Positions 2,087 through 51,872 of a DNA stretch of 64,000 bases are shown one piece after another. Position 1 is the stretch's first letter, and every line of letters starts with the position of its first letter. The stretch covers positions 1,690 to 65,689 of the forward strand of contig JASGCW010000009.1 in NCBI GenBank assembly GCA_030053945.1, read 5' to 3'. Below the pieces are notes generated by a model. The model was not told where the DNA came from and ran no database searches. It was given only the letters and a program-made list of their open reading frames with translations. Both the position numbers and the translations under genes were made by a program. This DNA is from Limnohabitans sp. (GTDB lineage Bacteria; Bacteroidota; Bacteroidia; Flavobacteriales; Flavobacteriaceae).

Positions 2087-3205
2087 TTATTCTTTAATTA
2101 TTTGATGTCCATTATTTTCTGTATAGTCTCTAGATTGATATAACCCTAATCCTTCAATTACAGGCAAGTCGTTAAAGTTAAATAAGCAGGCATCTTCGGT
2201 TTCTGAAAGGTTATGATGTTCATGAAATGCCCAAGAAGGAACGCAAAAAATATCTCTTTCTTTCCAATCAAAACGTTGTCCATTTATAATAGAATATCCT
2301 TTCCCTTTAGCACATTGATATACAAAAGATCCGGTATGGCGGTGTGCTTTTCCTTTGAATCCAGCAGGTAATAATTGGATTGCCGCCCCCATAGTTTGCA
2401 TAACATGCCCGCCTGTTAACGGATTTGAATATTTCATGAAAATTCCGTCGAATGGATTTAGTTCATTTACCTTTTGCGCTTCTAACAATGCAGGATATAC
2501 TTTAGACCATGAATATTTGAATAGGGGAGAATAGGGTTTTGTCCAAGTAGTCGTATCTGCTGGAATTAATCCAGAGCATCCATAAGTTATTGGACTGTAA
2601 TTTAAAGGAACATCCAAAGGTTGTTTTCCGTCAAAAACAGCATAATCATTAGCCTCTAGTGCATTTACCAATGGTATATCTAAACCATCCTGCCAAATAC
2701 AAGTTTCGCCATCTTCTTCAACGCCATGTTCATGCCAAGTAGAATTAGGAGTAATTACAAAATCATTGACTTCCAACATAATTTTGTTACCATCTACCAC
2801 TGTATATCCTTTTTTGCCTTCCATAATAAAACGTAGGGCAGAAGCACGATGTCTATGAGCAGAGGTGCTTTCACCTGGACGAGTAACTTGTATGCCAGTG
2901 TATAGCCAACCTACTGCTGCGGAAACGTCTTTACGTTTATCATTAACCAAATATACTACACGTCTTCCAGCTTGTTCTGGTGTTACTAATTCAGATGATT
3001 TTAGAACTAAATGTCTTAAATTTTCATATTTCCATAACATAGGAACAGAATTCGATTTAGGTTCCCAAGGTTCAATATCATTAGCTACTGTCCAAAGAGC
3101 TCCAGCGCCTAAAGTTTCTAATTCTTTATAATAGGCTTCTAGTTCAGGTGTGTCTTGAACACGAGCGCGACCTATAACGTCGTCTGAGTATTTTTTTTCT
3201 TCCAT
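2087..3205 (-). CDS. Bicupin ring-cleavage dioxygenase, gentisate 1,2-dioxygenase family
   Basis: AERR-like AGRRVVYLVN, AHRHRASALRF and WHEHG metal motifs in the first cupin; AHRHTGS and FHEHHN in the second. Confidence 0.85.
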   Translation of the reverse strand: MEEKKYSDDVIGRARVQDTPELEAYYKELETLGAGALWTVANDIEPWEPKSNSVPMLWKYENLRHLVLKSSELVTPEQAGRRVVYLVNDKRKDVSAAVGWLYTGIQVTRPGESTSAHRHRASALRFIMEGKKGYTVVDGNKIMLEVNDFVITPNSTWHEHGVEEDGETCIWQDGLDIPLVNALEANDYAVFDGKQPLDVPLNYSPITYGCSGLIPADTTTWTKPYSPLFKYSWSKVYPALLEAQKVNELNPFDGIFMKYSNPLTGGHVMQTMGAAIQLLPAGFKGKAHRHTGSFVYQCAKGKGYSIINGQRFDWKERDIFCVPSWAFHEHHNLSETEDACLFNFNDLPVIEGLGLYQSRDYTENNGHQIIKE

Positions 3206-3220
3206 TGTTTGTTTATTTAT

Positions 3221-3263
3221 TTTTTAAAGTATATTCAAAACTCCAGGAGTTATACTTTAAAAA
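3221..3263. repeat. REP-like palindrome downstream of the RAYT gene
   Basis: TTTTTAAAGTAT / ATACTTTAAAAA outer stem around an AACTCC-A-GGAGTT core. Confidence 0.65.
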
Positions 3264-3269
3264 GGTTCA

Positions 3270-4027
3270 TCATTCTATAATTAGTTCATTAATTTCTGAT
3301 AAATTATGTTCTTGATTATGGAACTCGATAAAATTACTTTTATTTCCGTATATGTCTAAAATTTCTTCTCTTTTAATTTTTGTTTTTTTGTCTGATACAA
3401 CACTTTCATATGTTTAAATTTTATTTTTCAGCGGTAACATATGGTATCCCTTTTTTAATCATTGGTGTTTACCTCACTTAGCATTTATTTTTATAGGTGT
3501 TCAGTGAATATATTTGCATACGCAAACTACTTGTTTATGGGGATTTCATATGATGACCAAGGATATAAACTCATTTTATCTGTAAATCCGTGTTGAACAG
3601 GGTTGTTGTGGATATAATAAATGAGATTTTTAAGATAGCGTTCTGATATCACTTTTTTTCTTTCAAAAGGAACTTCAAAAAGACTTCCAGTTCGTTTGAA
3701 TTTTTTATTTATCGCTTGTGTGTAAGCGTTAAAAAGATATCCAAATTGTCTTGAAGGTTCAATAACATTTGCCTTTTCTACTGTTGAATATTCTAATTTA
3801 TCTATTTCAATTTCATAGGGTAATTTTAGATAGACTAAAATATGAAAATGATTTTTCAGTAAACACCAAGCATAAGTTTCAGCAATAGGAGAAAAATACT
3901 TATCATAAAGTCTTAAAAAATGGAAATAACTTTCACTATCAAAAAAAACATCTATTTTATTATTACCTCTATTATAAATGTGGTAATAATTTCCAGTTTC
4001 TAATGGTAATGGTTTATAGGATTTCAT
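3270..4027 (-). pseudogene. REP-associated tyrosine transposase (RAYT, Y1/HUH), disrupted by a 140-bp insertion
   Basis: YYHIYNRGNN, HUH motif NHFHILV, YIHNNPVQHG and YPWSS. Removing 3411-3550 joins ...PWSS in frame to YESVVSDKKTKIKREEILDIYGNKSNFIEFHNQ...IE* (3410-3270), giving a 205-aa protein. Confidence 0.85.
3411..3550. mobile_element. 140-bp non-autonomous inserted element, copy 1
   Basis: Flanked by TTTCATA(TG) direct repeats at 3404-3412 and 3544-3552; interrupts the RAYT frame; homologous copy at 27763-27856. Confidence 0.8.
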
Positions 4028-4048
4028 TTTTTTAATTTCTATTTATTC

Positions 4049-4085
4049 TTTTAGTATTAAACTCCATTGGAATTTAATACTAAAA
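4049..4085. repeat. REP-like palindrome upstream of the RAYT gene
   Basis: TTTAGTATTAAACTCC-ATT-GGAATTTAATACTAAA, a 16-bp stem with one mismatch; shares the AACTCC..GGA core with 3221-3263. Confidence 0.7.
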
Positions 4086-4104
4086 ATGTAATTAAATGTA
4101 AAGA

Positions 4105-6171: not shown

Positions 6172-6596
6172 TAAGATTTAAGTAAAAAATAACTGATTTT
6201 TTCTCTCATTGCATCAGTAAATGCTTCAGAGGTTATTGTTTTTCTATCCTCTGCAATTTTTACATTGACTAATGTTACTTCGCCTTCAAGGACAACTTCG
6301 TTTTGTTGGTTTTTGAAAATAAAGCCACATAATAGGGAAGAGGTGCGAAGCTCTTTTACATACAGTTCCTTTACGATTGTTTCTCCTAATCGAGCTGCTT
6401 TTTTGAATTGTACTTTCAAATCGACCGTAGGCATTCCATTTGTCTCGTGCATTTTTGAAAACGGACGATGTAAAGCTTCTTCAAACCAGTCTTCAACCAA
6501 GTCGTTTAGCATTTCCAAAAATCTTGGGTAAAACACAATTCCAGCATAATCTATATGCTTAAATTTTATTTTTTGTTCTTTTATAAAGTATTTCAT
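6171..6596 (-). CDS. Acyl-CoA thioesterase (4-HBA-CoA/hotdog family)
   Basis: IKFKHIDYAGIVFYPRF motif; 141 aa. Confidence 0.85.
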   Translation of the reverse strand: MKYFIKEQKIKFKHIDYAGIVFYPRFLEMLNDLVEDWFEEALHRPFSKMHETNGMPTVDLKVQFKKAARLGETIVKELYVKELRTSSLLCGFIFKNQQNEVVLEGEVTLVNVKIAEDRKTITSEAFTDAMREKISYFLLKS

Positions 6597-6680
6597 ATTT
6601 TCAAATTCAATTTGTCATAGATTACATTCTACTAATCTATTATTACTTTTCACTATTTTCTTTTCACTTATCACTCTCAA

Positions 6681-25059: not shown

Positions 25060-25779
25060 TTATTTAATATAATTCTCAAGTTGTTTTAAAGTAATTCTAC
25101 TTTCATAGATGGCTTTACCTATGATAACTCCTTCGCAACCCAGTTGAGCGAGCTTTGGTAATTCTTCAAAACCTGAAATACCTCCGGAAGCAATTAATTT
25201 GACATTTTTACATTGTGATATAATTTGTTGGTATAATTCAAAACTTGGTCCTTGAAGCATACCATCTTTAGAAATATCTGTACAAATTACATATTCAATG
25301 CTTTTTGATTGATAGTTTTGAATGAAAGGAATTACTTCCTCTTTGCTTTCTTCTAACCAACCCGAAATAGCAATTTTTCCATTATTTGCATCGGCTCCTA
25401 AAATGATTTTATCAGCTCCATAATTCTGAATCCATTGTTCAAATAATTCAGGATTTTTAACTGCGATGCTACCTCCAGTAATTTGGGTCGCACCACATTC
25501 GAAAGCAATTTTTAAATCTTCATCCGATTTTAATCCACCTCCAAAATCAATTTTTAAGTTTGTTTTTGTAGCTATTTGTTCTAATACTTTATGATTAATT
25601 ATCCGACTTGATTTTGCACCATCTAAATCGACTAAATGCAAATACTCAATTCCGTGATCTTGAAATTCTTTGGCTACTTCAAGTGGATTTTCATTGTATA
25701 TTTTTTTGGTATCATAATCTCCTTTTGAGAGTCTTACGCATTTTCCGTCTATAATATCTATTGCGGGTATTATTCTCAT
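25060..25779 (-). CDS. hisA: ProFAR isomerase
   Basis: [34 protein letters not shown]. Confidence 0.97.
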
Positions 25780-27155
25780 TATTTTTTTAATTTAATTTCC
25801 TCAGCAGTTGCATTTCTATAATCAATTTCGAAAACGCTTACGGCATTACCACTTTTTTCGACACTGCTTTTTCCTTGTGAGGTTATTACTAATTGTCTTC
25901 CATCTGATGAAATAGCCATTCCTACAGGGAATTTAGATATAGGATATGTTTTAATCACTTCAAAAGTTCTACCATCTATAACCGCTAATTTGCTTTCATT
26001 ATTTACACAAGCAAAAATGTATTTCCCATCAGGAGTTGCATCTATAGTTCTTGCTCCGATTCCTACATAAGCAGTTTTCCATTTTGAAAATTCTACTTGT
26101 GTAGAAGTATTTTTAAAAGGTAATTTTAAGAGTTCTCCTAGGGGTGATTTTTGTACAAATCCAAATTTATTTGAACTTACTAAAACATTATTATTATTGA
26201 TGATAATATGTCTTAAGTTTAGTTTACTTCCTTTAATTGTTCCAATATAATTAAAGTTAGTCGTTTCTATTACTGCAATACCATTGCCTCCCATTTTTGA
26301 AACTAATAAATAATCACTATTTGGCGTAAATACAGTACCTCTCAAACAATTTCCACATTCATTATCTCTATCCACTTTTTGTCCATTGCTATAATCCATT
26401 GGCAATCTAGAATCTATAATGATGTGTTTTATGTATTTAAAATCTTGAACATTATCTGATGAAATATCTATGATTCCAACTGTATTATCACCCCAATGTG
26501 TTACTGCGATATATTTATTATCTGGCGAACAAGCAATCATTTTTGGAAGTGGTCCACTAGGCATAACTCGTATGATTTCATCTTTACTTGTATCAATAAT
26601 TGCTACAGCCGATGGAGAAACTGCATTTTCATCAAAATCTCTTCTATAATAAGTAACCCATAAGTATTTTCCATTGTGAGATAAGGCACTTTCAACAGGT
26701 TTACCCATAAAATAATTATAGTTTTCTTTTTCTTGTTTATACGTATAATCAAAAGCTATAGTCTCATTATCTTTAAAAAGAGAATTATTTTTTTCATTAA
26801 AAATGTGTGAAATTGCTTTAATACGTTTTAAAGTTTTTGAATCGTAAACTACTGTTTGATAGCCTTCTAATGAATTTACATAAATTTTTGATCCATCCCA
26901 AGAATATATTGCCGATTTAGGTGATGCAATGTATTTATCATACACATCCAAACTATCTAATTTTATAGAATCAATAGACTGAATTCTTTGAACCAATTTT
27001 AATTCTTTAAAAATGGTATCGGTTCTTACTTCAACTTCTTTAGCAGTTTGAACACTATTTTTATTTGCTGTGGTCGTTTGCCCTTTTGTTTGGCAAGAAA
27101 TTAATGAAACCGCTACTAAAAAATAAGGAAGTATTTTGATGATTTTTACTCGCAT
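25779..27155 (-). CDS. Beta-propeller lipoprotein (YncE/YVTN-like)
   Basis: Lipobox SLISC; repeated [23 protein letters not shown] and [10 protein letters not shown] blades. Confidence 0.7.
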
Positions 27156-27179: not shown

Positions 27180-27761
27180 TTATAAGGCTATAAAATTACT
27201 CAAAATTTTACTACCTATATTCCCACTTTTTTCTGGGTGGAACTGTACTCCGTAAAAATTATCTTTTTGAATAGCGGTGGCATATTCCATTTCATAATTT
27301 GTTGAAGCAATGGTATATGGATTTAATGGAGCATAATAGCTATGAACCAAATACATATATTCATTTTCTGAAATTCCATTAAACAATGGAGATTTCAAAT
27401 CATAAATAGTATTCCAACCCATCTGCGGTACTTTAACCACAGGCGAAAATTTTTTAATAGCTATATCAAAAATTCCAAGCCCTTTTGCATTTCCTTCCTC
27501 GGTTGTTTTGCATAATAATTGCATGCCTAAACATATCCCTAATACAGGTTGTTTTAGTTGAAGTATTACTTTATCTAAACCTTGTTCACGTAGCATAATC
27601 ATTGCGCTACTTGCTTCACCAACACCTGGGAAAATAACTTTTGAAGCATTTATAATTTCATTCGCATCTGATGTTACTATACCTTGATAACCTAATCGTT
27701 CCAAGGCAAAAAGCACACTTTGTACATTACCAGCTCCGTAGTCTATTATCGCAATTTTCAT
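27180..27761 (-). CDS. hisH: Imidazole glycerol phosphate synthase glutaminase subunit
   Basis: IIDYGAGN, LGICLGMQ, QFHPEKSG. Confidence 0.97.
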   Translation of the reverse strand: MKIAIIDYGAGNVQSVLFALERLGYQGIVTSDANEIINASKVIFPGVGEASSAMIMLREQGLDKVILQLKQPVLGICLGMQLLCKTTEEGNAKGLGIFDIAIKKFSPVVKVPQMGWNTIYDLKSPLFNGISENEYMYLVHSYYAPLNPYTIASTNYEMEYATAIQKDNFYGVQFHPEKSGNIGSKILSNFIAL

Positions 27762-27762
27762 A

Positions 27763-27856
27763 TGTTTAAAATTTATTTTTCATAGGTAACATATGTTATC
27801 CCTTTTTAATCATTGGTGTTTGCATACGCAAACTGCTTGTTTATGGGGATTTCATA
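27763..27856. mobile_element. 94-bp internally deleted copy 2 of the mini-element, inserted at the hisH start codon
   Basis: Aligns to 3411-3550 with 5 substitutions, one 1-bp indel and a 45-bp internal deletion; flanked by TTTCATA at 27756-27762 and 27850-27856. Confidence 0.8.
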
Positions 27857-27862
27857 ATTATT

Positions 27863-27923
27863 AGTTTAAAGTTTAAGGTTTCAAGTTATTTTTTTTGAAA
27901 TTAACTTGAAACTTGAAACTAAA
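27863..27923. repeat. Inverted heptamer arrays between hisB and hisH
   Basis: AGTTTAA AGTTTAA GGTTTCA AGTT ... AACTTGA AACTTGA AACTAAA. Confidence 0.65.
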
Positions 27924-27924
27924 T

Positions 27925-31417: not shown

Positions 31418-32275
31418 TTATAATACCATTTTTTCTATTGGGCATACTAGAATTCCTTCTGCACCTGCTTCTTTTAGCTGATCTATTACTTCCCAAAATT
31501 TTTCTTCATCAATAACAGAATGTAAGCTACTCCATCCTTCTTCTGCAAGAGGCATAATTGTTGGACTTTTTAAAACAGGTAAAATTGAACTTACTTCTTT
31601 TATTTTAGCATTAGGAACATTCATCAAAATATATTTTGATTTTCTGGCTCTTAATACAGATTGAATTCTGAATAATAATTTATCCAAAAGTTTTTTAGAA
31701 TCTTCTTGAATTAAAGGGGACACAGCAAGTACTGCTTCGCTTTTTAGAATTACTTCCACTTCTTTCAAGTTATTTTTGAAAAGAGTACTTCCACTAGAAA
31801 CAATATCTACAATAGCATCTGAAAGCCCAATATTAGGAGCTATCTCGACCGACCCTGAAATTTGGTGTATATCAACATTAACACCTTTTGAATTGAAGTA
31901 ATTTAGAACTGTATTTGGGTAAGATGTTGCAATTTTCAATCCATCTAAATCTTTTAAAGAAGTGAATTCGTAATTTTTAGGTACTGCCACAGAAACTTTG
32001 CATTTTGAAAAACCAAGTTTCTCTACAACACTGATATTTTTCCCTTTTTCTACTAAAAGATTATCACCTACTATTGCGATATCTACTACCCCATCAATCA
32101 AGTATTGAGGAATATCAGAATTTCGTAAAAAATATACTTCTAAAGGAAAATTTGAAGCTACGATTTTTAATTCGTCATTTCCATTATTGATAGAAATTCC
32201 AGAATCTTTTAAAATTTGAAGACTATCTTCGTAAAGTCTTCCTGATTTTTGAATTGCGATTTTTAAAATACTCAT
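31418..32275 (-). CDS. hisG: ATP phosphoribosyltransferase (long form)
   Basis: LKIAIQKSGRL, RNSDIP, GSVEIAP, DAIVDIVSSGSTL. Confidence 0.97.
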   Translation of the reverse strand: MSILKIAIQKSGRLYEDSLQILKDSGISINNGNDELKIVASNFPLEVYFLRNSDIPQYLIDGVVDIAIVGDNLLVEKGKNISVVEKLGFSKCKVSVAVPKNYEFTSLKDLDGLKIATSYPNTVLNYFNSKGVNVDIHQISGSVEIAPNIGLSDAIVDIVSSGSTLFKNNLKEVEVILKSEAVLAVSPLIQEDSKKLLDKLLFRIQSVLRARKSKYILMNVPNAKIKEVSSILPVLKSPTIMPLAEEGWSSLHSVIDEEKFWEVIDQLKEAGAEGILVCPIEKMVL

Positions 32276-32324
32276 TGTGTTTTAGTTTTATGAGTATATC
32301 AAGGAGTAAATCTAAGTTCTTACA

Positions 32325-32362
32325 AAGAAAAAACCCGTTTGATATACTCAAACGGGTTTATA
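32325..32362 (-). terminator. his attenuator terminator
   Basis: AAACCCGTTTGA-TATAC-TCAAACGGGTTT hairpin followed by a T-tract on the minus strand, between the leader peptide and hisG. Confidence 0.9.
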
Positions 32363-32390
32363 GTTTATATGATTTATAACAACATCATCA

Positions 32391-32447
32391 CTACCTCGCT
32401 TGAGCGTGGGACAAATGATGATGATGATGTAATTGATTTAAAAACAT
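32391..32447 (-). CDS. hisL: his operon leader peptide MFLNQLHHHHHLSHAQAR
   Basis: 18 codons plus stop, with 5 consecutive CAT codons and one CAC, directly upstream of the attenuator hairpin. Confidence 0.9.
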   Translation of the reverse strand: MFLNQLHHHHHLSHAQAR

Positions 32448-32464
32448 ATTTTTTTATTATGCTG

Positions 32465-32497
32465 CAAATTTAAAATAAATAAATTGAGATATGCAAA
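32465..32497 (-). promoter_or_regulatory. Bacteroidota sigma70-type promoter for the his operon
   Basis: -7 TAAATTTG (32472-32465) and -33 TTTG (32497-32494) with a 21-bp spacer. Confidence 0.75.
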
Positions 32498-32533
32498 TAT
32501 TTTTTTCAACTTAACTTTTAAATCACAATTTGT

Positions 32534-33989
32534 TTAATTTAAAACAATCTTCTTAACTGTATTATCTTTAAACTTTAATAAATATGTACCTTTTGCCATA
32601 TTAGCAAAATTTACTAATAATGTAGGTTCTGAAATATCTATTTCTTTAATAAGTTTTCCATTTATATCTACTAACTGTGCTTTAGTATTTATTAACTCAG
32701 GAATAGTAACATCTATAGTGATAATATCAGTACTTGGATTAGGATAAACTTTCACATCTCCTTTAACCAAAGTAAAATTTTCATTTGCTAATGCTGATGA
32801 ATACAAATTACTTTCCCACACCCCTCTTCCATAAAACGAAACTCTTACAACACTATTTGTAGTACCATCAAAATATCCAAATAAATCTGTAATTTGAGCA
32901 ATCATTGGAAGATTATTCGAAAAACTTTGCCAATTAGTCATTGAAGAATTTCTATAATATACTCCAAATGGTGTAGCTAAGTAAAAACTTTCGTCTGTGC
33001 TATACGGATCATGAATTAAACTTATAATATTTGAAGTAGTTAGTCCTCCAGAAATATTTGTCCAAGTAACTCCTTTATTAGAAGAACGATAGGCTACATT
33101 AGCACAAGTTAAATACACAATATTTGTATTATTTTTATTTACAACTATATTACAAAAATTCGCGGCCGATGAAGGTGTTGTCGAAATTTGTGAAAAATTT
33201 ATACCATCTGAAGAATAATGAACCTGATTATTTGTTAGAACTACATATATTTCATTATTATTTGTTGGTGAAATTGTAAAGTTTTTAATATTTGAACTAA
33301 AAGTTTTAACAGTTGTCCAAGTGGGCGAAAGTCCTAATAAATTAGTAGTTTTTTTAAGTGTTGTCCCTTGACTAACAAATCCTAAACTAGTATTGCTTGT
33401 TGAAAAAACATAATTATCATTATTACTTGAACTCAAAAGACCAAAACTAGATTCACTACTATTTGTTACTAAGTTTCTTTTTTTAGCATTTTCATAATAA
33501 TATACAATATTTGCATTCGCATAATCAAAAGTAGCTTTAGACCCCCAGTCGCCTCCTCTGTTACAATACCAAGTATTATTATTCAAATAGATTTCGCCAT
33601 TATCTTGAGTACCAATAGTTACAATGTTTCTTGACAATTTGCTTTGTCCCATACGATAAACTTCAGTTGCGCTTATTCCGTCAGATTTAGGATTCCAAAC
33701 ATTTCCACCATCTGTACTTAAGAAAATTCCACCATCATTAATATTGTATAATTTAGTGTTATCAAAAGGAGATGAAATAATTTGATGCATATCTGTATGG
33801 CAATTTTCCCACCAATTTGTAAGTTGTGACCAACTTACGCCACTGTTAGTACTTTTCCAAACTACATGACCACAAACATAAAGTGTATTAGCATCATTTC
33901 TATCAGCAAACATTCCCCAATTATACGCTCCTTGACCGGTTTCAGTTGGAGTATAACCATTTAGATTTGGATTTACATCACCTTTTTTC
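32534..33989 (-). pseudogene. 5'-truncated duplicate of the T9SS beta-propeller gene
   Basis: Encodes the same C-terminal 459 aa as 34473-36743; lacks the signal peptide and N-terminal blades. Confidence 0.85.
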
Positions 33990-34214
33990 TACTAAAAGAT
34001 TATCACCTACTATTGCGATATCTACTACCCCATCAATCAAGTATTGAGGAATATCAGAATTTCGTAAAAAATATACTTCTAAAGGAAAATTTGAAGCTAC
34101 GATTTTTAATTCGTCATTTCCATTATTGATAGAAATTCCAGAATCTTTTAAAATTTGAAGACTATCTTCGTAAAGTCTTCCTGATTTTTGAATTGCGATT
34201 TTTAAAATACTCAT
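33978..34214 (-). pseudogene. hisG: 3'-truncated hisG duplicate (78 aa)
   Basis: First 77 aa match HisG, then it runs out of frame into the junction and stops (...VEKR*). Confidence 0.9.
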
Positions 34215-34263
34215 TGTGTTTTAGTTTTATGAGTATATCAAGGAGTAAATCTAAGTTCTTACA

Positions 34264-34436
34264 AAGAAAAAACCCGTTTGATATACTCAAACGGGTTTAT
34301 AGTTTATATGATTTATAACAACATCATCACTACCTCGCTTGAGCGTGGGACAAATGATGATGATGATGTAATTGATTTAAAAACATATTTTTTTATTATG
34401 CTGCAAATTTAAAATAAATAAATTGAGATATGCAAA
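34264..34436 (-). promoter_or_regulatory. hisL: Second copy of the his promoter, leader peptide (34330-34386) and attenuator
   Basis: Copy of 32325-32497 at offset +1939. Confidence 0.9.
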
Positions 34437-34472
34437 TATTTTTTTCAACTTAACTTTTAAATCACAATTTGT

Positions 34473-36743
34473 TTAATTTAAAACAATCTTCTTAACTGTA
34501 TTATCTTTAAACTTTAATAAATATGTACCTTTTGCCATATTAGCAAAATTTACTAATAATGTAGGTTCTGAAATATCTATTTCTTTAATAAGTTTTCCAT
34601 TTATATCTACTAACTGTGCTTTAGTATTTATTAACTCAGGAATAGTAACATCTATAGTGATAATATCAGTACTTGGATTAGGATAAACTTTCACATCTCC
34701 TTTAACCAAAGTAAAATTTTCATTTGCTAATGCTGATGAATACAAATTACTTTCCCACACCCCTCTTCCATAAAACGAAACTCTTACAACACTATTTGTA
34801 GTACCATCAAAATATCCAAATAAATCTGTAATTTGAGCAATCATTGGAAGATTATTCGAAAAACTTTGCCAATTAGTCATTGAAGAATTTCTATAATATA
34901 CTCCAAATGGTGTAGCTAAGTAAAAACTTTCGTCTGTGCTATACGGATCATGAATTAAACTTATAATATTTGAAGTAGTTAGTCCTCCAGAAATATTTGT
35001 CCAAGTAACTCCTTTATTAGAAGAACGATAGGCTACATTAGCACAAGTTAAATACACAATATTTGTATTATTTTTATTTACAACTATATTACAAAAATTC
35101 GCGGCCGATGAAGGTGTTGTCGAAATTTGTGAAAAATTTATACCATCTGAAGAATAATGAACCTGATTATTTGTTAGAACTACATATATTTCATTATTAT
35201 TTGTTGGTGAAATTGTAAAGTTTTTAATATTTGAACTAAAAGTTTTAACAGTTGTCCAAGTGGGCGAAAGTCCTAATAAATTAGTAGTTTTTTTAAGTGT
35301 TGTCCCTTGACTAACAAATCCTAAACTAGTATTGCTTGTTGAAAAAACATAATTATCATTATTACTTGAACTCAAAAGACCAAAACTAGATTCACTACTA
35401 TTTGTTACTAAGTTTCTTTTTTTAGCATTTTCATAATAATATACAATATTTGCATTCGCATAATCAAAAGTAGCTTTAGACCCCCAGTCGCCTCCTCTGT
35501 TACAATACCAAGTATTATTATTCAAATAGATTTCGCCATTATCTTGAGTACCAATAGTTACAATGTTTCTTGACAATTTGCTTTGTCCCATACGATAAAC
35601 TTCAGTTGCGCTTATTCCGTCAGATTTAGGATTCCAAACATTTCCACCATCTGTACTTAAGAAAATTCCACCATCATTAATATTGTATAATTTAGTGTTA
35701 TCAAAAGGAGATGAAATAATTTGATGCATATCTGTATGGCAATTTTCCCACCAATTTGTAAGTTGTGACCAACTTACGCCACTGTTAGTACTTTTCCAAA
35801 CTACATGACCACAAACATAAAGTGTATTAGCATCATTTCTATCAGCAAACATTCCCCAATTATACGCTCCTTGACCGGTTTCAGTTGGAGTATAACCATT
35901 TAGATTTGGATTTACATCACCTTTTTTCAATATAAAAGTTGTCCCACTATCTGTAGATTGATATATGATACCACCTTGATCAGCATTATTGCTACCCACA
36001 AACCCTGCATAAACTATAGAAGAATTTGCTGCGGATACAGCTATTCTTCCACCATTACCAGCAACGGGATTAACTGAAGCAATAGCAGTCCATGAATCTC
36101 CATCGTTTGTGCTTTTTAAAAATTGATTATCTGTAATAGCATAAACGATAGTATTTGAACCTGGTTTATAAACCATATCTCTAAATGATCCATTTGCTTT
36201 TAGAGACCAAGATGCACCAGCGTCTGTACTTTTCCAAATTCCGTTATTTGTGGCAGCAAGAATAGTATTATGATTATTAGGTGAAATCAAAATTTCTACC
36301 GCCATAGCATTGCCTATTCCAGTATTTGAAGCAGCCCAAGTTTGACCACCATCAATACTTTTGTAGATACCATAATCTGTAGAATAATAATTCGCATCAC
36401 CTGAACATAAATAAATGATATTGTCGTTAGAATAATCTATTGCAACTGAAGAACAAGATCCTTGAGGTATCTGTCCGTCTGTATTTGATTTATTCCAAGT
36501 TAAAGCACCATCATTAGTAATCCATAAACCTCCTGAAGCGCTTACTGCATAAATTTTTTGAGCATTTGTTGCATGAAATTTAATTTGAGATACTCTCCCT
36601 ATTCCATGAATTTGACCAGAAATATTAGTTGGAAATGCAATAGGTCCTTTTATGGTCCAATTTCCATTTAGATTTTGAGCTTCAATATATTGGACAAAAA
36701 ATAACAAGACAATACAAACTGCTATAAAACTATTTTTTTTCAT
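34473..36743 (-). CDS. T9SS-secreted BNR/VPS10-like beta-propeller protein
   Basis: Signal peptide; repeated SxDGGxTW Asp-boxes; C-terminal VYPNPS...KGTYLLK type A sorting domain. Confidence 0.85.
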   Translation of the reverse strand: MKKNSFIAVCIVLLFFVQYIEAQNLNGNWTIKGPIAFPTNISGQIHGIGRVSQIKFHATNAQKIYAVSASGGLWITNDGALTWNKSNTDGQIPQGSCSSVAIDYSNDNIIYLCSGDANYYSTDYGIYKSIDGGQTWAASNTGIGNAMAVEILISPNNHNTILAATNNGIWKSTDAGASWSLKANGSFRDMVYKPGSNTIVYAITDNQFLKSTNDGDSWTAIASVNPVAGNGGRIAVSAANSSIVYAGFVGSNNADQGGIIYQSTDSGTTFILKKGDVNPNLNGYTPTETGQGAYNWGMFADRNDANTLYVCGHVVWKSTNSGVSWSQLTNWWENCHTDMHQIISSPFDNTKLYNINDGGIFLSTDGGNVWNPKSDGISATEVYRMGQSKLSRNIVTIGTQDNGEIYLNNNTWYCNRGGDWGSKATFDYANANIVYYYENAKKRNLVTNSSESSFGLLSSSNNDNYVFSTSNTSLGFVSQGTTLKKTTNLLGLSPTWTTVKTFSSNIKNFTISPTNNNEIYVVLTNNQVHYSSDGINFSQISTTPSSAANFCNIVVNKNNTNIVYLTCANVAYRSSNKGVTWTNISGGLTTSNIISLIHDPYSTDESFYLATPFGVYYRNSSMTNWQSFSNNLPMIAQITDLFGYFDGTTNSVVRVSFYGRGVWESNLYSSALANENFTLVKGDVKVYPNPSTDIITIDVTIPELINTKAQLVDINGKLIKEIDISEPTLLVNFANMAKGTYLLKFKDNTVKKIVLN

Positions 36744-36749
36744 ATTCCC

Positions 36750-42311: not shown

Positions 42312-42451
42312 ACCTTTTAAAAGACAAATATTTAAACACTTTTAACGATAACATTTTTCTGGTCTATACTAAAATGCATTGTATGATAATGATACTAATT
42401 GCACCCCTATGAAACCATATATTTCAAAAATTTTGACTAATGTAAATTTAT

Positions 42452-42515
42452 TTCGTTCAACAGCTAAGGTCGTTGCGTGCGAAGCACGAACAATGAAACC
42501 TTAGCTGTTGTGTGC
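42452..42515. repeat. attC-like imperfect palindrome
   Basis: CAACAGCTAAGG (42458-42469) / CCTTAGCTGTTG (42499-42510) perfect stem, bulged inner stem and a CGTGC-GAA-GCACG apex, just after the SEFIR stop. Confidence 0.6.
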
Positions 42516-42523
42516 AGTTATTG

Positions 42524-50380: not shown

Positions 50381-50509
50381 TTTCTTGATTAAATTATGTA
50401 ACTATTCAGTTATAGCTTTATTCGCTTGACAATAATCCCGAAGCTTCGAGACAAAAAGTATCAAATATCCAAAATGTTTGATTTTTTGAATCATTAATAT
50501 ATTGGGATT

Positions 50510-51811
50510 CACTAGTGTCCACTATAGATTAAAAAAAGTTCTTTGAAATTATTGTAAATCCGTATTTTAAGTCTCATTTTAGAGCGTGACGATTTGAAAT
50601 GAATCCATTATGTTCGTAAATTAACATTACGAATATGAATTACGGAAAATATGTCTTTTCTCAATTGGTTGAATTTCTACCCCAGCGTGTTTTTGATAGA
50701 CTTGTAACAAAATATGATGGAAATAAAAAAGTCAGACATTTTACTTGTTGGAATCAACTTTTATGTATGATTTTCGGTCAATTGTCTTCACGTGATAGCT
50801 TACGAGATTTGATAATAGTTATCGAAGCACATCAATCAAAATCGTATCATTTAGGATTTGGAAAAAATGTAACTCGAAGCAACTTATCCAAAGCTAATGA
50901 AAACCGTAATTATAAGATATTTGAAGACTTTGCTAACCATTTAATCTTGATTGCTCAAGAAAAAAATCATAACGATAATTTTGAGATAAAAGGCAATATT
51001 TATGCTTTTGATTCTTCAACAATTGACTTGTGTTTGAGTGTGTTTTGGTGGGCTCATTTTAGAACAACCAAGGCAGGAATAAAACTCCACACACTTTTTG
51101 ATATTAACACGCAAATCCCTGTTTTCATTCACATCACAGAGGCTAACGTTCACGATGTTAATGCAATGGATATAATCAATTACGAACGTTTCGCATATTA
51201 TATTTTTGACCGTGCTTATGTGGATTATTCCAGACTATATCAAATTACTAAGTCTTGTGCTTATTTTGTTGTTAGAGCAAAATCAAATGTAAAATTCAAA
51301 AGAATGTATTCCAAAAAAACTGATAAATCCACAGGAGTTATTTATGACCAAACTGGGAAAATAGAAGGCTTTTATACTTCTAAAGACTATCCCGAAAAGA
51401 TAAGAAAAGTGAAATTCTTTGATGCTGAAAACAAAAAAATGTTACTTTTTTTGACGAATAATTTTGATTTATCTGCTCAACAAATTGCATTGCTTTACAA
51501 ACAGCGTTGGCAGATTGAATTATTCTTCAAATGGATTAAACAACATCTGAAAGTTAAAGCTTTTTGGGGAACGACAGAAAATGCTGTTCGCATACAAATT
51601 AACATCGCAATAATAACTTATTGTTTGGTGTCAATAATTGCAAAAGATTTAAAAATCAATCGTTCAATCTACGAAATATTACAAATTTTATCAGCATCAT
51701 TACTTGATAAAACACCTGTAAATGAGTTGCTTATGAAATCAGATTACAATAATGTTAATGAACATATTACTAACCAGCTGGTTTTCAATTTATTTTAAGT
51801 GGACACTAGTG
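50510..51811 (+). mobile_element. IS4-family insertion sequence, 1302 bp
   Basis: 14-bp perfect TIRs CACTAGTGTCCACT (50510-50523 / 51798-51811); 9-bp target duplication ATTGGGATT (50501-50509 and 51812-51820). Confidence 0.95.
50635..51798 (+). CDS. IS4-family DDE transposase
   Basis: AFDSSTI, FDRAYVDY, YKQRWQIELFFKWIKQHL signature. Confidence 0.95.
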   Translation: MNYGKYVFSQLVEFLPQRVFDRLVTKYDGNKKVRHFTCWNQLLCMIFGQLSSRDSLRDLIIVIEAHQSKSYHLGFGKNVTRSNLSKANENRNYKIFEDFANHLILIAQEKNHNDNFEIKGNIYAFDSSTIDLCLSVFWWAHFRTTKAGIKLHTLFDINTQIPVFIHITEANVHDVNAMDIINYERFAYYIFDRAYVDYSRLYQITKSCAYFVVRAKSNVKFKRMYSKKTDKSTGVIYDQTGKIEGFYTSKDYPEKIRKVKFFDAENKKMLLFLTNNFDLSAQQIALLYKQRWQIELFFKWIKQHLKVKAFWGTTENAVRIQINIAIITYCLVSIIAKDLKINRSIYEILQILSASLLDKTPVNELLMKSDYNNVNEHITNQLVFNLF

Positions 51812-51872
51812 ATTGGGATTTATTTCTAAAGAGCTCAGAATTTCTATCTACTTATCATCAAAATTATTAGAT

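Follow-up and report, generated by a model that had tools for sequence, protein, structure and literature searches.

The minus strand of the window (by which we mean the whole 64,000-nt stretch of DNA that was analysed) raises the question of what kind of mobile DNA splits a RAYT-like gene near the left end, with one 7-bp word at both edges of the insert and no terminal inverted repeats (TIRs). Small non-autonomous elements are the least understood mobile DNA of bacteria, and the described ones are mostly MITEs with TIRs. The element considered here is TIR-less, and the 7-bp site to which it is strictly confined overlaps start codons. We consider it fairly likely (a probability of about 0.7) that it belongs to a family of small, non-autonomous, site- and orientation-specific elements of Flavobacterium, which recombine through a 7-bp core and use an internal sequence as a splint for their own ends.

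The interrupted RAYT-like gene

The gene is present on the minus strand in two parts, namely the N-terminal 159 codons (3551-4027), which keep the HUH motif (HFH) and the YxxxNP tyrosine motif, and a displaced C-terminal part of 46 codons plus the stop (3270-3410). Between them lie the 140 bp of copy 1 of the element (3411-3550, minus strand), which include one 7-mer at 3544-3550, while the outer 7-mer, TATGAAA (TTTCATA on the plus strand; 3404-3410, minus strand), is the retained target or core word on the side of the C-terminal fragment. An earlier note on this DNA had described 140 bp between TTTCATA direct repeats, and the words are indeed found at 3404-3410 and 3544-3550; the repeat is in fact a 9-mer, TTTCATATG, with a spacing of 140 bp. 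The accompanying claim that excision restores the gene also holds: upon removal of 3411-3550 on the minus strand, the ORF at 3527-4027 fuses with the frame at 3270-3410 into a protein of 205 aa. As it stands, the disrupted ORF (3527-4027) encodes 166 aa and stops after five element-encoded codons (IPINK, then the stop); its truncated product retains the HUH and Tyr motifs and has lost the 46 C-terminal residues.

The restored protein has more than 100 homologues of exactly 205 aa, with 70-77% identity and 100% coverage; the named organisms among them are Flavobacterium, and several of the proteins carry the JGI name RayT. An insert-free orthologue is found in GCA_025351785.1, where the uninterrupted gene encodes PWSSFQTIISD as against PWSSYE/SVVSD in the window. 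The restored protein matches the NCBIfam model NF047646 (REP-associated tyrosine transposase) with E = 2e-11 and 43.9 bits, which is below the cutoff of 80, and a Pfam search of the protein gave no match. Its sole PDB match is a weak one to E. coli TnpA-REP (4ER8, E = 0.14), in which HFHIL is aligned with HMHCI and YIHNNPVQHG with YIYINPVKHG, so that the HUH and Tyr motifs are in register. Hairpins with a common AAACTCCA...GGAGTT/GGAATTT core are present on both sides of the gene (3205-3300 and 4028-4104) and may be its cognate REP-like sites; as candidate relatives of the element itself, these hairpins of the AACTCC.GGAGTT type were rejected, being unrelated to it.

Copies, target word and basic form of the element

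A second copy at the same 7-mer, also reported in the earlier note, is confirmed at 27756-27856 with TTTCATA at both edges. It is 94 bp long including one 7-mer (27850-27856) and occupies 27763-27856 on the minus strand, with the splint (see below) at 27788-27802 and the hairpin H1 at 27819-27832; its outer TATGAAA (27756-27762, minus strand) holds the start codon of hisH (ATG, 27761-27759). Its identity with copy 1 is 92.5% across the left 67 nt and 97% across the right 38 nt, and 45 middle nucleotides are absent from it. In the nearest relative that could be reached (Logan SRR30909890; HisH 87% identical) there is no spacer between hisB and hisH, which overlap as TTATAATGAAAATTG, and the 163-nt hisB-hisH spacer of the window is therefore lineage-specific. 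It was through the part of this spacer at 27857-27924 (minus strand), which has a hairpin of its own, that the TATGAAA context of copy 2 arose. The hairpin of this 68-nt segment is a strong one (GTTTCAAGTTA...TAACTTGAAAC), which is absent from the relative and not repeated elsewhere in the DNA examined.

Elsewhere in this region, a gene for a 458-aa beta-propeller lipoprotein (25779-27155) lies between hisH and hisA; as hisA directly follows hisH in the related species, the his operon has gained a gene here. At about 32045-35928, blast matches offset by 1939 bp (e.g. 33129/35068 and 33507/35446) and duplicated ORFs of 459 and 756 aa point to a tandem duplication over part of hisG and the T9SS gene described below.

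Copy 3 comes from another Flavobacterium species (positions 2-101 of L024, a contig of Logan SRR30909890), in which it stands at the start of the contig. It belongs to the 94-bp type, shares 85% identity with copy 2 across 101 nt and lies between two TATGAAA words, of which the downstream one is the start codon of a T9SS/sortilin-like gene. The orthologue of this gene in the window (34473-36743) has at its start codon a vacant TATGAAA (36738-36744, minus strand; context GGGAATATGAAAAAAA), the same site that is occupied by copy 3 in the related species.

In all three copies TATGAAA stands on both sides of the element in one orientation, and the flanks past the 7-mer share nothing. There are thus three independent insertions at this word, by elements of 94-140 bp, across two Flavobacterium species. 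TATGAAA occurs 51 times in the window, 46 of these occurrences being free, and that three insertions in one orientation should all lie at it is not due to chance. The word often overlaps a start codon (ATG AAA), and since exact insertion at ATG AAA rebuilds the start codon, operon genes such as hisH can have their translation start regions rewired by the element and yet not be destroyed. The termini next to TATGAAA read TCCCCATAAAC... and ...TTTAAACA. A 20/21-nt match to the left end, located at 6553-6573 towards the 5' end of a thioesterase gene, was rejected as a copy; it is AT-rich, lies in coding sequence and is probably a chance match. The gene has a free TATGAAA (6591-6597) as its start codon.

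The 45 nucleotides that distinguish copy 1 form a module at 3471-3515 with TTT microhomology at its bounds. The difference had been taken for a 45-bp deletion in copy 2, but an addition in copy 1 is more likely, because two of the three copies, including that of the other species, are without the module and because a relative of it lies outside elements. This relative is at L016:15734-15780, in a strain from ENA, just beyond the window and outside any element (20 nt exact, about 36/44 overall). The basic form of the element is hence more likely the 94-bp one, with copy 1 bearing a 45-bp addition. A long hairpin with the apex GTGCTTCGCAC (GCTAAGGTTTC...GAAACCTTAGC) is found at two loci, about 42450-42520 (minus strand) and L016:15690-15740; it represents a family of REP-like repeats that has no relation to the mini-element, and its L016 locus adjoins the relative of the 45-nt module.

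An internal sequence complementary to both ends

TIRs were looked for in the element and none are present, in agreement with the earlier description, and both internal structures named there exist, i.e. the hairpin TTTGC-ATAC-GCAAA (H1, 3513-3526), whose stem is invariant in all three copies, and the near-palindrome GGTAACATATGGTATCC. In addition, copy 1 contains at 3436-3450 (minus strand) an internal splint, AACATATG-GT-ATCCC as read on the plus strand, that is complementary to both element ends: its segment 3436-3443 pairs with the left junction CATATGTT (3407-3414) in helix 1, and its segment 3446-3450 pairs with the right end GGGAT (3540-3544) in helix 2. In copies 1 and 2 alike the internal AACATATG complements the left junction CATA/TGTT, and the adjacent internal ATCCC complements the right end GGGA/T. 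On the opposite strand the internal site forms the 15-mer GGGATA[C/A]CATATGTT, which differs from the joined ends, GGGA-TTTCATA-TGTT, at two central bases only.

Both helices had already been defined from the first two copies when copy 3 came to light. Copy 3 alters both partners of one pair in each helix, amounting to two double compensatory changes (C-G to G-C and U-A to G-C), by which TCCCC/GGGAT becomes TCGCC/GCGAT and AACATATG/CATATGTT becomes CACATATG/CATATGTG. The proposed pairs are intact (18/18) in all copies, and sliding the 3' partners by 1-3 columns lowers the pairing cells from 100% to 17-56%. When the 14 observed substitutions were placed randomly 200,000 times, at least two compensated pairs together with no broken pair were obtained at a frequency of 2.6e-4; a shuffle control of the pairing gave 57/500, a comparison in which three sequences cannot reach significance. 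Copy 3 on its own folds into the same three-helix shape (z = -4.3 to -4.75). Based on this covariation, which comes from a single diverged copy (copy 3) among three sequenced copies in all, a link between the splint and the element ends is well supported. Inverted repeats bound by one protein would covary identically, and it is for this reason that we only infer pairing to be the active state. An internal sequence complementary to both termini of its own element is a new feature; to our knowledge, no described transposon family has an internal sequence that pairs with both its own ends. Being kept complementary to both ends, this sequence offers a compact and testable case of end recognition via nucleic-acid pairing.

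These observations also bear on a small ORF of 13 codons (MIKKGIPYVTAEK, then a stop), the KKGIPYV tail of which had been regarded as a transposase remnant. The ORF does exist in copy 1, and only there: a 1-nt indel in copy 2 turns it into MIKKG and a stop, and copy 3 is without the ATG. A Pfam search with it gave no match, and its two changed codons are exactly the compensatory bases. The reading frame is not kept, the conserved bases are explained by nucleic-acid pairing, and the interpretation of this tail as a transposase remnant is not supported.

Further copies and comparison of strains

Breaks in assemblies indicate that these three copies are not the only ones. Logan contigs (k=31) of SRR23378605 and SRR23378604, identical to the window where they overlap it, break off at 3433, 3522, 27785 and 27827, the first of these stops falling at 3431 in the second run (SRR23378604). 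At three of the four junctions the contigs stop 30 nt (k-1) inward of the outer edge of the 7-mer, and at the fourth 29 nt inward. Stops 30 nt inside the ends are what would be expected if another locus shared the terminal 23 nt and the 7-mer and then diverged; copies 1 and 2 have no 30-mer in common and hence are unable to account for them. At 3522 a circle junction would put C before ATATGAAA, so the alternative context at this position is not the element's own circle, while at the other three junctions a circle or a further copy fits equally well. In the second species the contigs of three samples all begin at one base, 1 nt outside the 7-mer, which points to another copy with the same first 30 nt and a different hairpin loop. 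Further copies of the element are thus implied in both species.

The ENA contig ERZ26695388 ctg156610 (1.39 Mb) is 99.3% identical to the window and contains both copies unchanged; no further copies are present in the approximately 34 kb past the window on this contig. In about 98 kb of this genome and the near-identical ENA strain there are thus only two copies, and as both are fixed in both strains there is no sign of movement since the strains split. Copies 1 and 2 score 100.9 and 126.3 bits with the model R1. An exact-pattern scan of genome contigs gave one match, in a Polaribacter MAG, with about one expected by chance, and this match was rejected as a member of the family since it attains only 19.5 bits with R1 and has a broken helix 2. 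Exact-pattern scans of metagenomes yielded either 0 matches or chance matches only (7), and those of viral collections, like a blastn search of plasmids with the element, chance matches only. Nothing was recovered in a protein search with the element-spanning ORF for gene calls on other copies, or near threshold in an Rfam search with the element.

Proposed mechanism and competing explanations

We infer that the 7-mer is a shared recombination core, one copy of which belongs to the element, rather than a duplication arising from a staggered cut. The element would recombine with TATGAAA through the 7-bp core that it carries, by way of a joined-end form, circular or single-stranded, of the type ...GGGA-TTTCATA-TGTT.... 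The internal site may pair with the junction of this form into a 15-bp duplex with a 2-nt central bubble, and this duplex would either hold the ends in register for a trans-acting enzyme or itself constitute a folded recombination site like integron attC or the attP(+) hairpin of CTX phage. Owing to the two-nucleotide heterology, the internal site would not itself recombine with targets. A putative recombinase would be supplied in trans, and its identification may reveal either a known enzyme (DEDD, HUH or tyrosine) put to a new use or a new one. Against this mechanism, each arm of the duplex next to the 7-mer measures just 4-5 bp, and arms of this size are short for known tyrosine recombinases; nor did the DNA examined show a circular junction, a recombinase or a parent element. 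A further possibility, which we advance tentatively and at less than even odds, is that the family is an undescribed class of minimal 94-bp mobile DNA that carries its own nucleic-acid splint and is derived neither from IS110 nor from IS200/IS605, DDE elements or integrons. Its 15-mer would pair with the joined ends, either building the site on a folded single strand or holding the ends for a structure-specific enzyme, and the element would home to the start-codon word TATGAAA. Were this so, it would repeatedly land just upstream of genes, with their AUG inside its helix.

Other origins have to be weighed against recombination through a self-carried core. Much of the earlier interpretation stands: excision and flanks bear out that a non-autonomous mobile element without TIRs, specific in target and orientation, has been inserted, that it interrupts a RAYT-like gene, and that a second copy occurs at an identical 7-mer. 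The note's further proposal, in which deletion has reduced an IS110/IS1111 element to a left and a right end that a DEDD transposase and its bridge or seek RNA mobilise in trans, we regard as doubtful. Certain members of IS110, those of the IS900 group, insert at the RBS/start-codon region, and a 5-bp repeat flanks IS492, which is atypical of the family in this respect. The absence of TIRs, the strict target and orientation specificity and the one short word at both junctions are IS110-like, a 22-bp donor or ends of 84+71 bp are enough for IS110-type mobilisation in trans (PMC11208160; PMC11187229), and a MITE-like IS110 derivative, MITEPpu9, has already been described (PMC12288879). However, the junction repeat is 7 nt (TATGAAA) at all six junctions as against the 2-nt core of IS110, the 94-bp form is too small for a bridge RNA of 150-190 nt, and the element has no IS1111-type subterminal inverted repeats (11-13 bp; 7 and 3 bp from the ends). 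Furthermore, the guides of bridge and seek RNAs pair with opposite strands (PMC11208160, PMC11187229), as do LDG and RDG, whereas the sole end-covarying site of the element pairs with a single strand to either side of the core; for this site, the geometry of a bridge-RNA donor loop was rejected because the covariation fits the reverse-complement register and not that of an identical strand. The supposed tail ORF, with its frameshift in copy 2, its missing ATG in copy 3 and no Pfam match, speaks against this origin too, and the window has no gene for a DEDD transposase (PF01548/PF02371), its only transposase being of the IS4-type DDE kind, with ends unrelated to the element.

Single-strand transposition by an HUH (Y1) enzyme, as in IS200/IS605 PATEs or REP/RAYT, would make the 7-mer the target on one side and the element's own 3' cleavage site on the other, with the internal sequences as guides. 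Such elements need neither TIRs nor a true duplication, pairing of internal DNA with both regions of cleavage is reportedly the defining logic of those of the IS608 type, and the genome encodes a RAYT-like Y1 protein. We nevertheless judge this improbable, in that just one hairpin of the element is conserved, where similar subterminal hairpins at left and right would be expected, the 4 nt 5' of the foot of H1 are its most variable position (GTAG, GCAG, GAAG), its pairing consists of ordinary antiparallel helices of 8 and 5 bp and not of 4-nt guide contacts, the hairpins flanking the RAYT-like gene are of another kind, and the resident RAYT is itself the disrupted gene. Very improbable are a DDE-type MITE with degenerate TIRs and a 7-bp TSD, or the reading that there is no mobile element at all but a conserved cis-regulatory leader. 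The former could appeal to the resident IS4-like element (50509-51812), which likewise makes a 7-bp duplication (TTGGGAT), and the latter to helix 1, in which the start codon downstream of copies 2 and 3 is sequestered. Nevertheless, the element has no TIRs and no likeness to the IS4-like ends, one 7-mer at three independent sites is unlike the outcome of a staggered cut, and copy 1 splits a coding gene that its exact excision restores. The restoration of the RAYT-like gene, its 205-aa homologues, the lack of TIRs and the identical 7-mer have already largely refuted both. A classical DDE MITE has TIRs and a TSD of fixed length and variable sequence. The IS4-type insertion sequence was also considered as a parent and rejected on account of its unrelated ends. 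It has the TIR TCACTAGTGTCCAC and encodes a 387-aa transposase with DUF4372 and DDE_Tnp_1 (50635-51798), and an exact empty site in the 99.3%-identical ENA strain implies that it moved recently.

Comparison with known systems

With IS110/IS1111 and MITEPpu9 (PMC12288879) the element shares the lack of TIRs, the strict site and orientation, the short junction word and short ends that can be mobilised in trans. It differs in its core of 7 rather than 2 nt, in having no room for a bridge or seek RNA and no subterminal inverted repeats, and in an end-covarying internal site that pairs with one strand only. Some members of IS110/IS1111 target translation start regions, as does the element. Like the IS200/IS605 elements, PATEs and REP/RAYT systems, the element lacks TIRs and a real duplication, its target is short and specific, and its internal DNA pairs with the regions of cleavage; unlike them, it has one hairpin, an unconserved guide position, long canonical pairing and the same 7-mer at both ends.

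Integron attC sites differ from the element in that its arms are 4-5 bp, its crossover would lie mid-duplex rather than at the base, and it forms no cassette array; the R''/R' boxes of attC (RYYYAAC...GTTRRRY) have no counterpart in its arms, CATATGTT...AACATATG, where AAC/GTT is unconserved and GTG occurs in copy 3. In both attC and CTX attP(+), as in the element, flanks bear a 7-bp core repeat, TIRs are absent, an inner inverse sequence is complementary to the junction of the joined ends, and the stem has a central unpaired spacer or bubble; the size of the element also falls within the attC range (57-141 nt). In its predicted topology the element is strikingly similar to the integron attC site.
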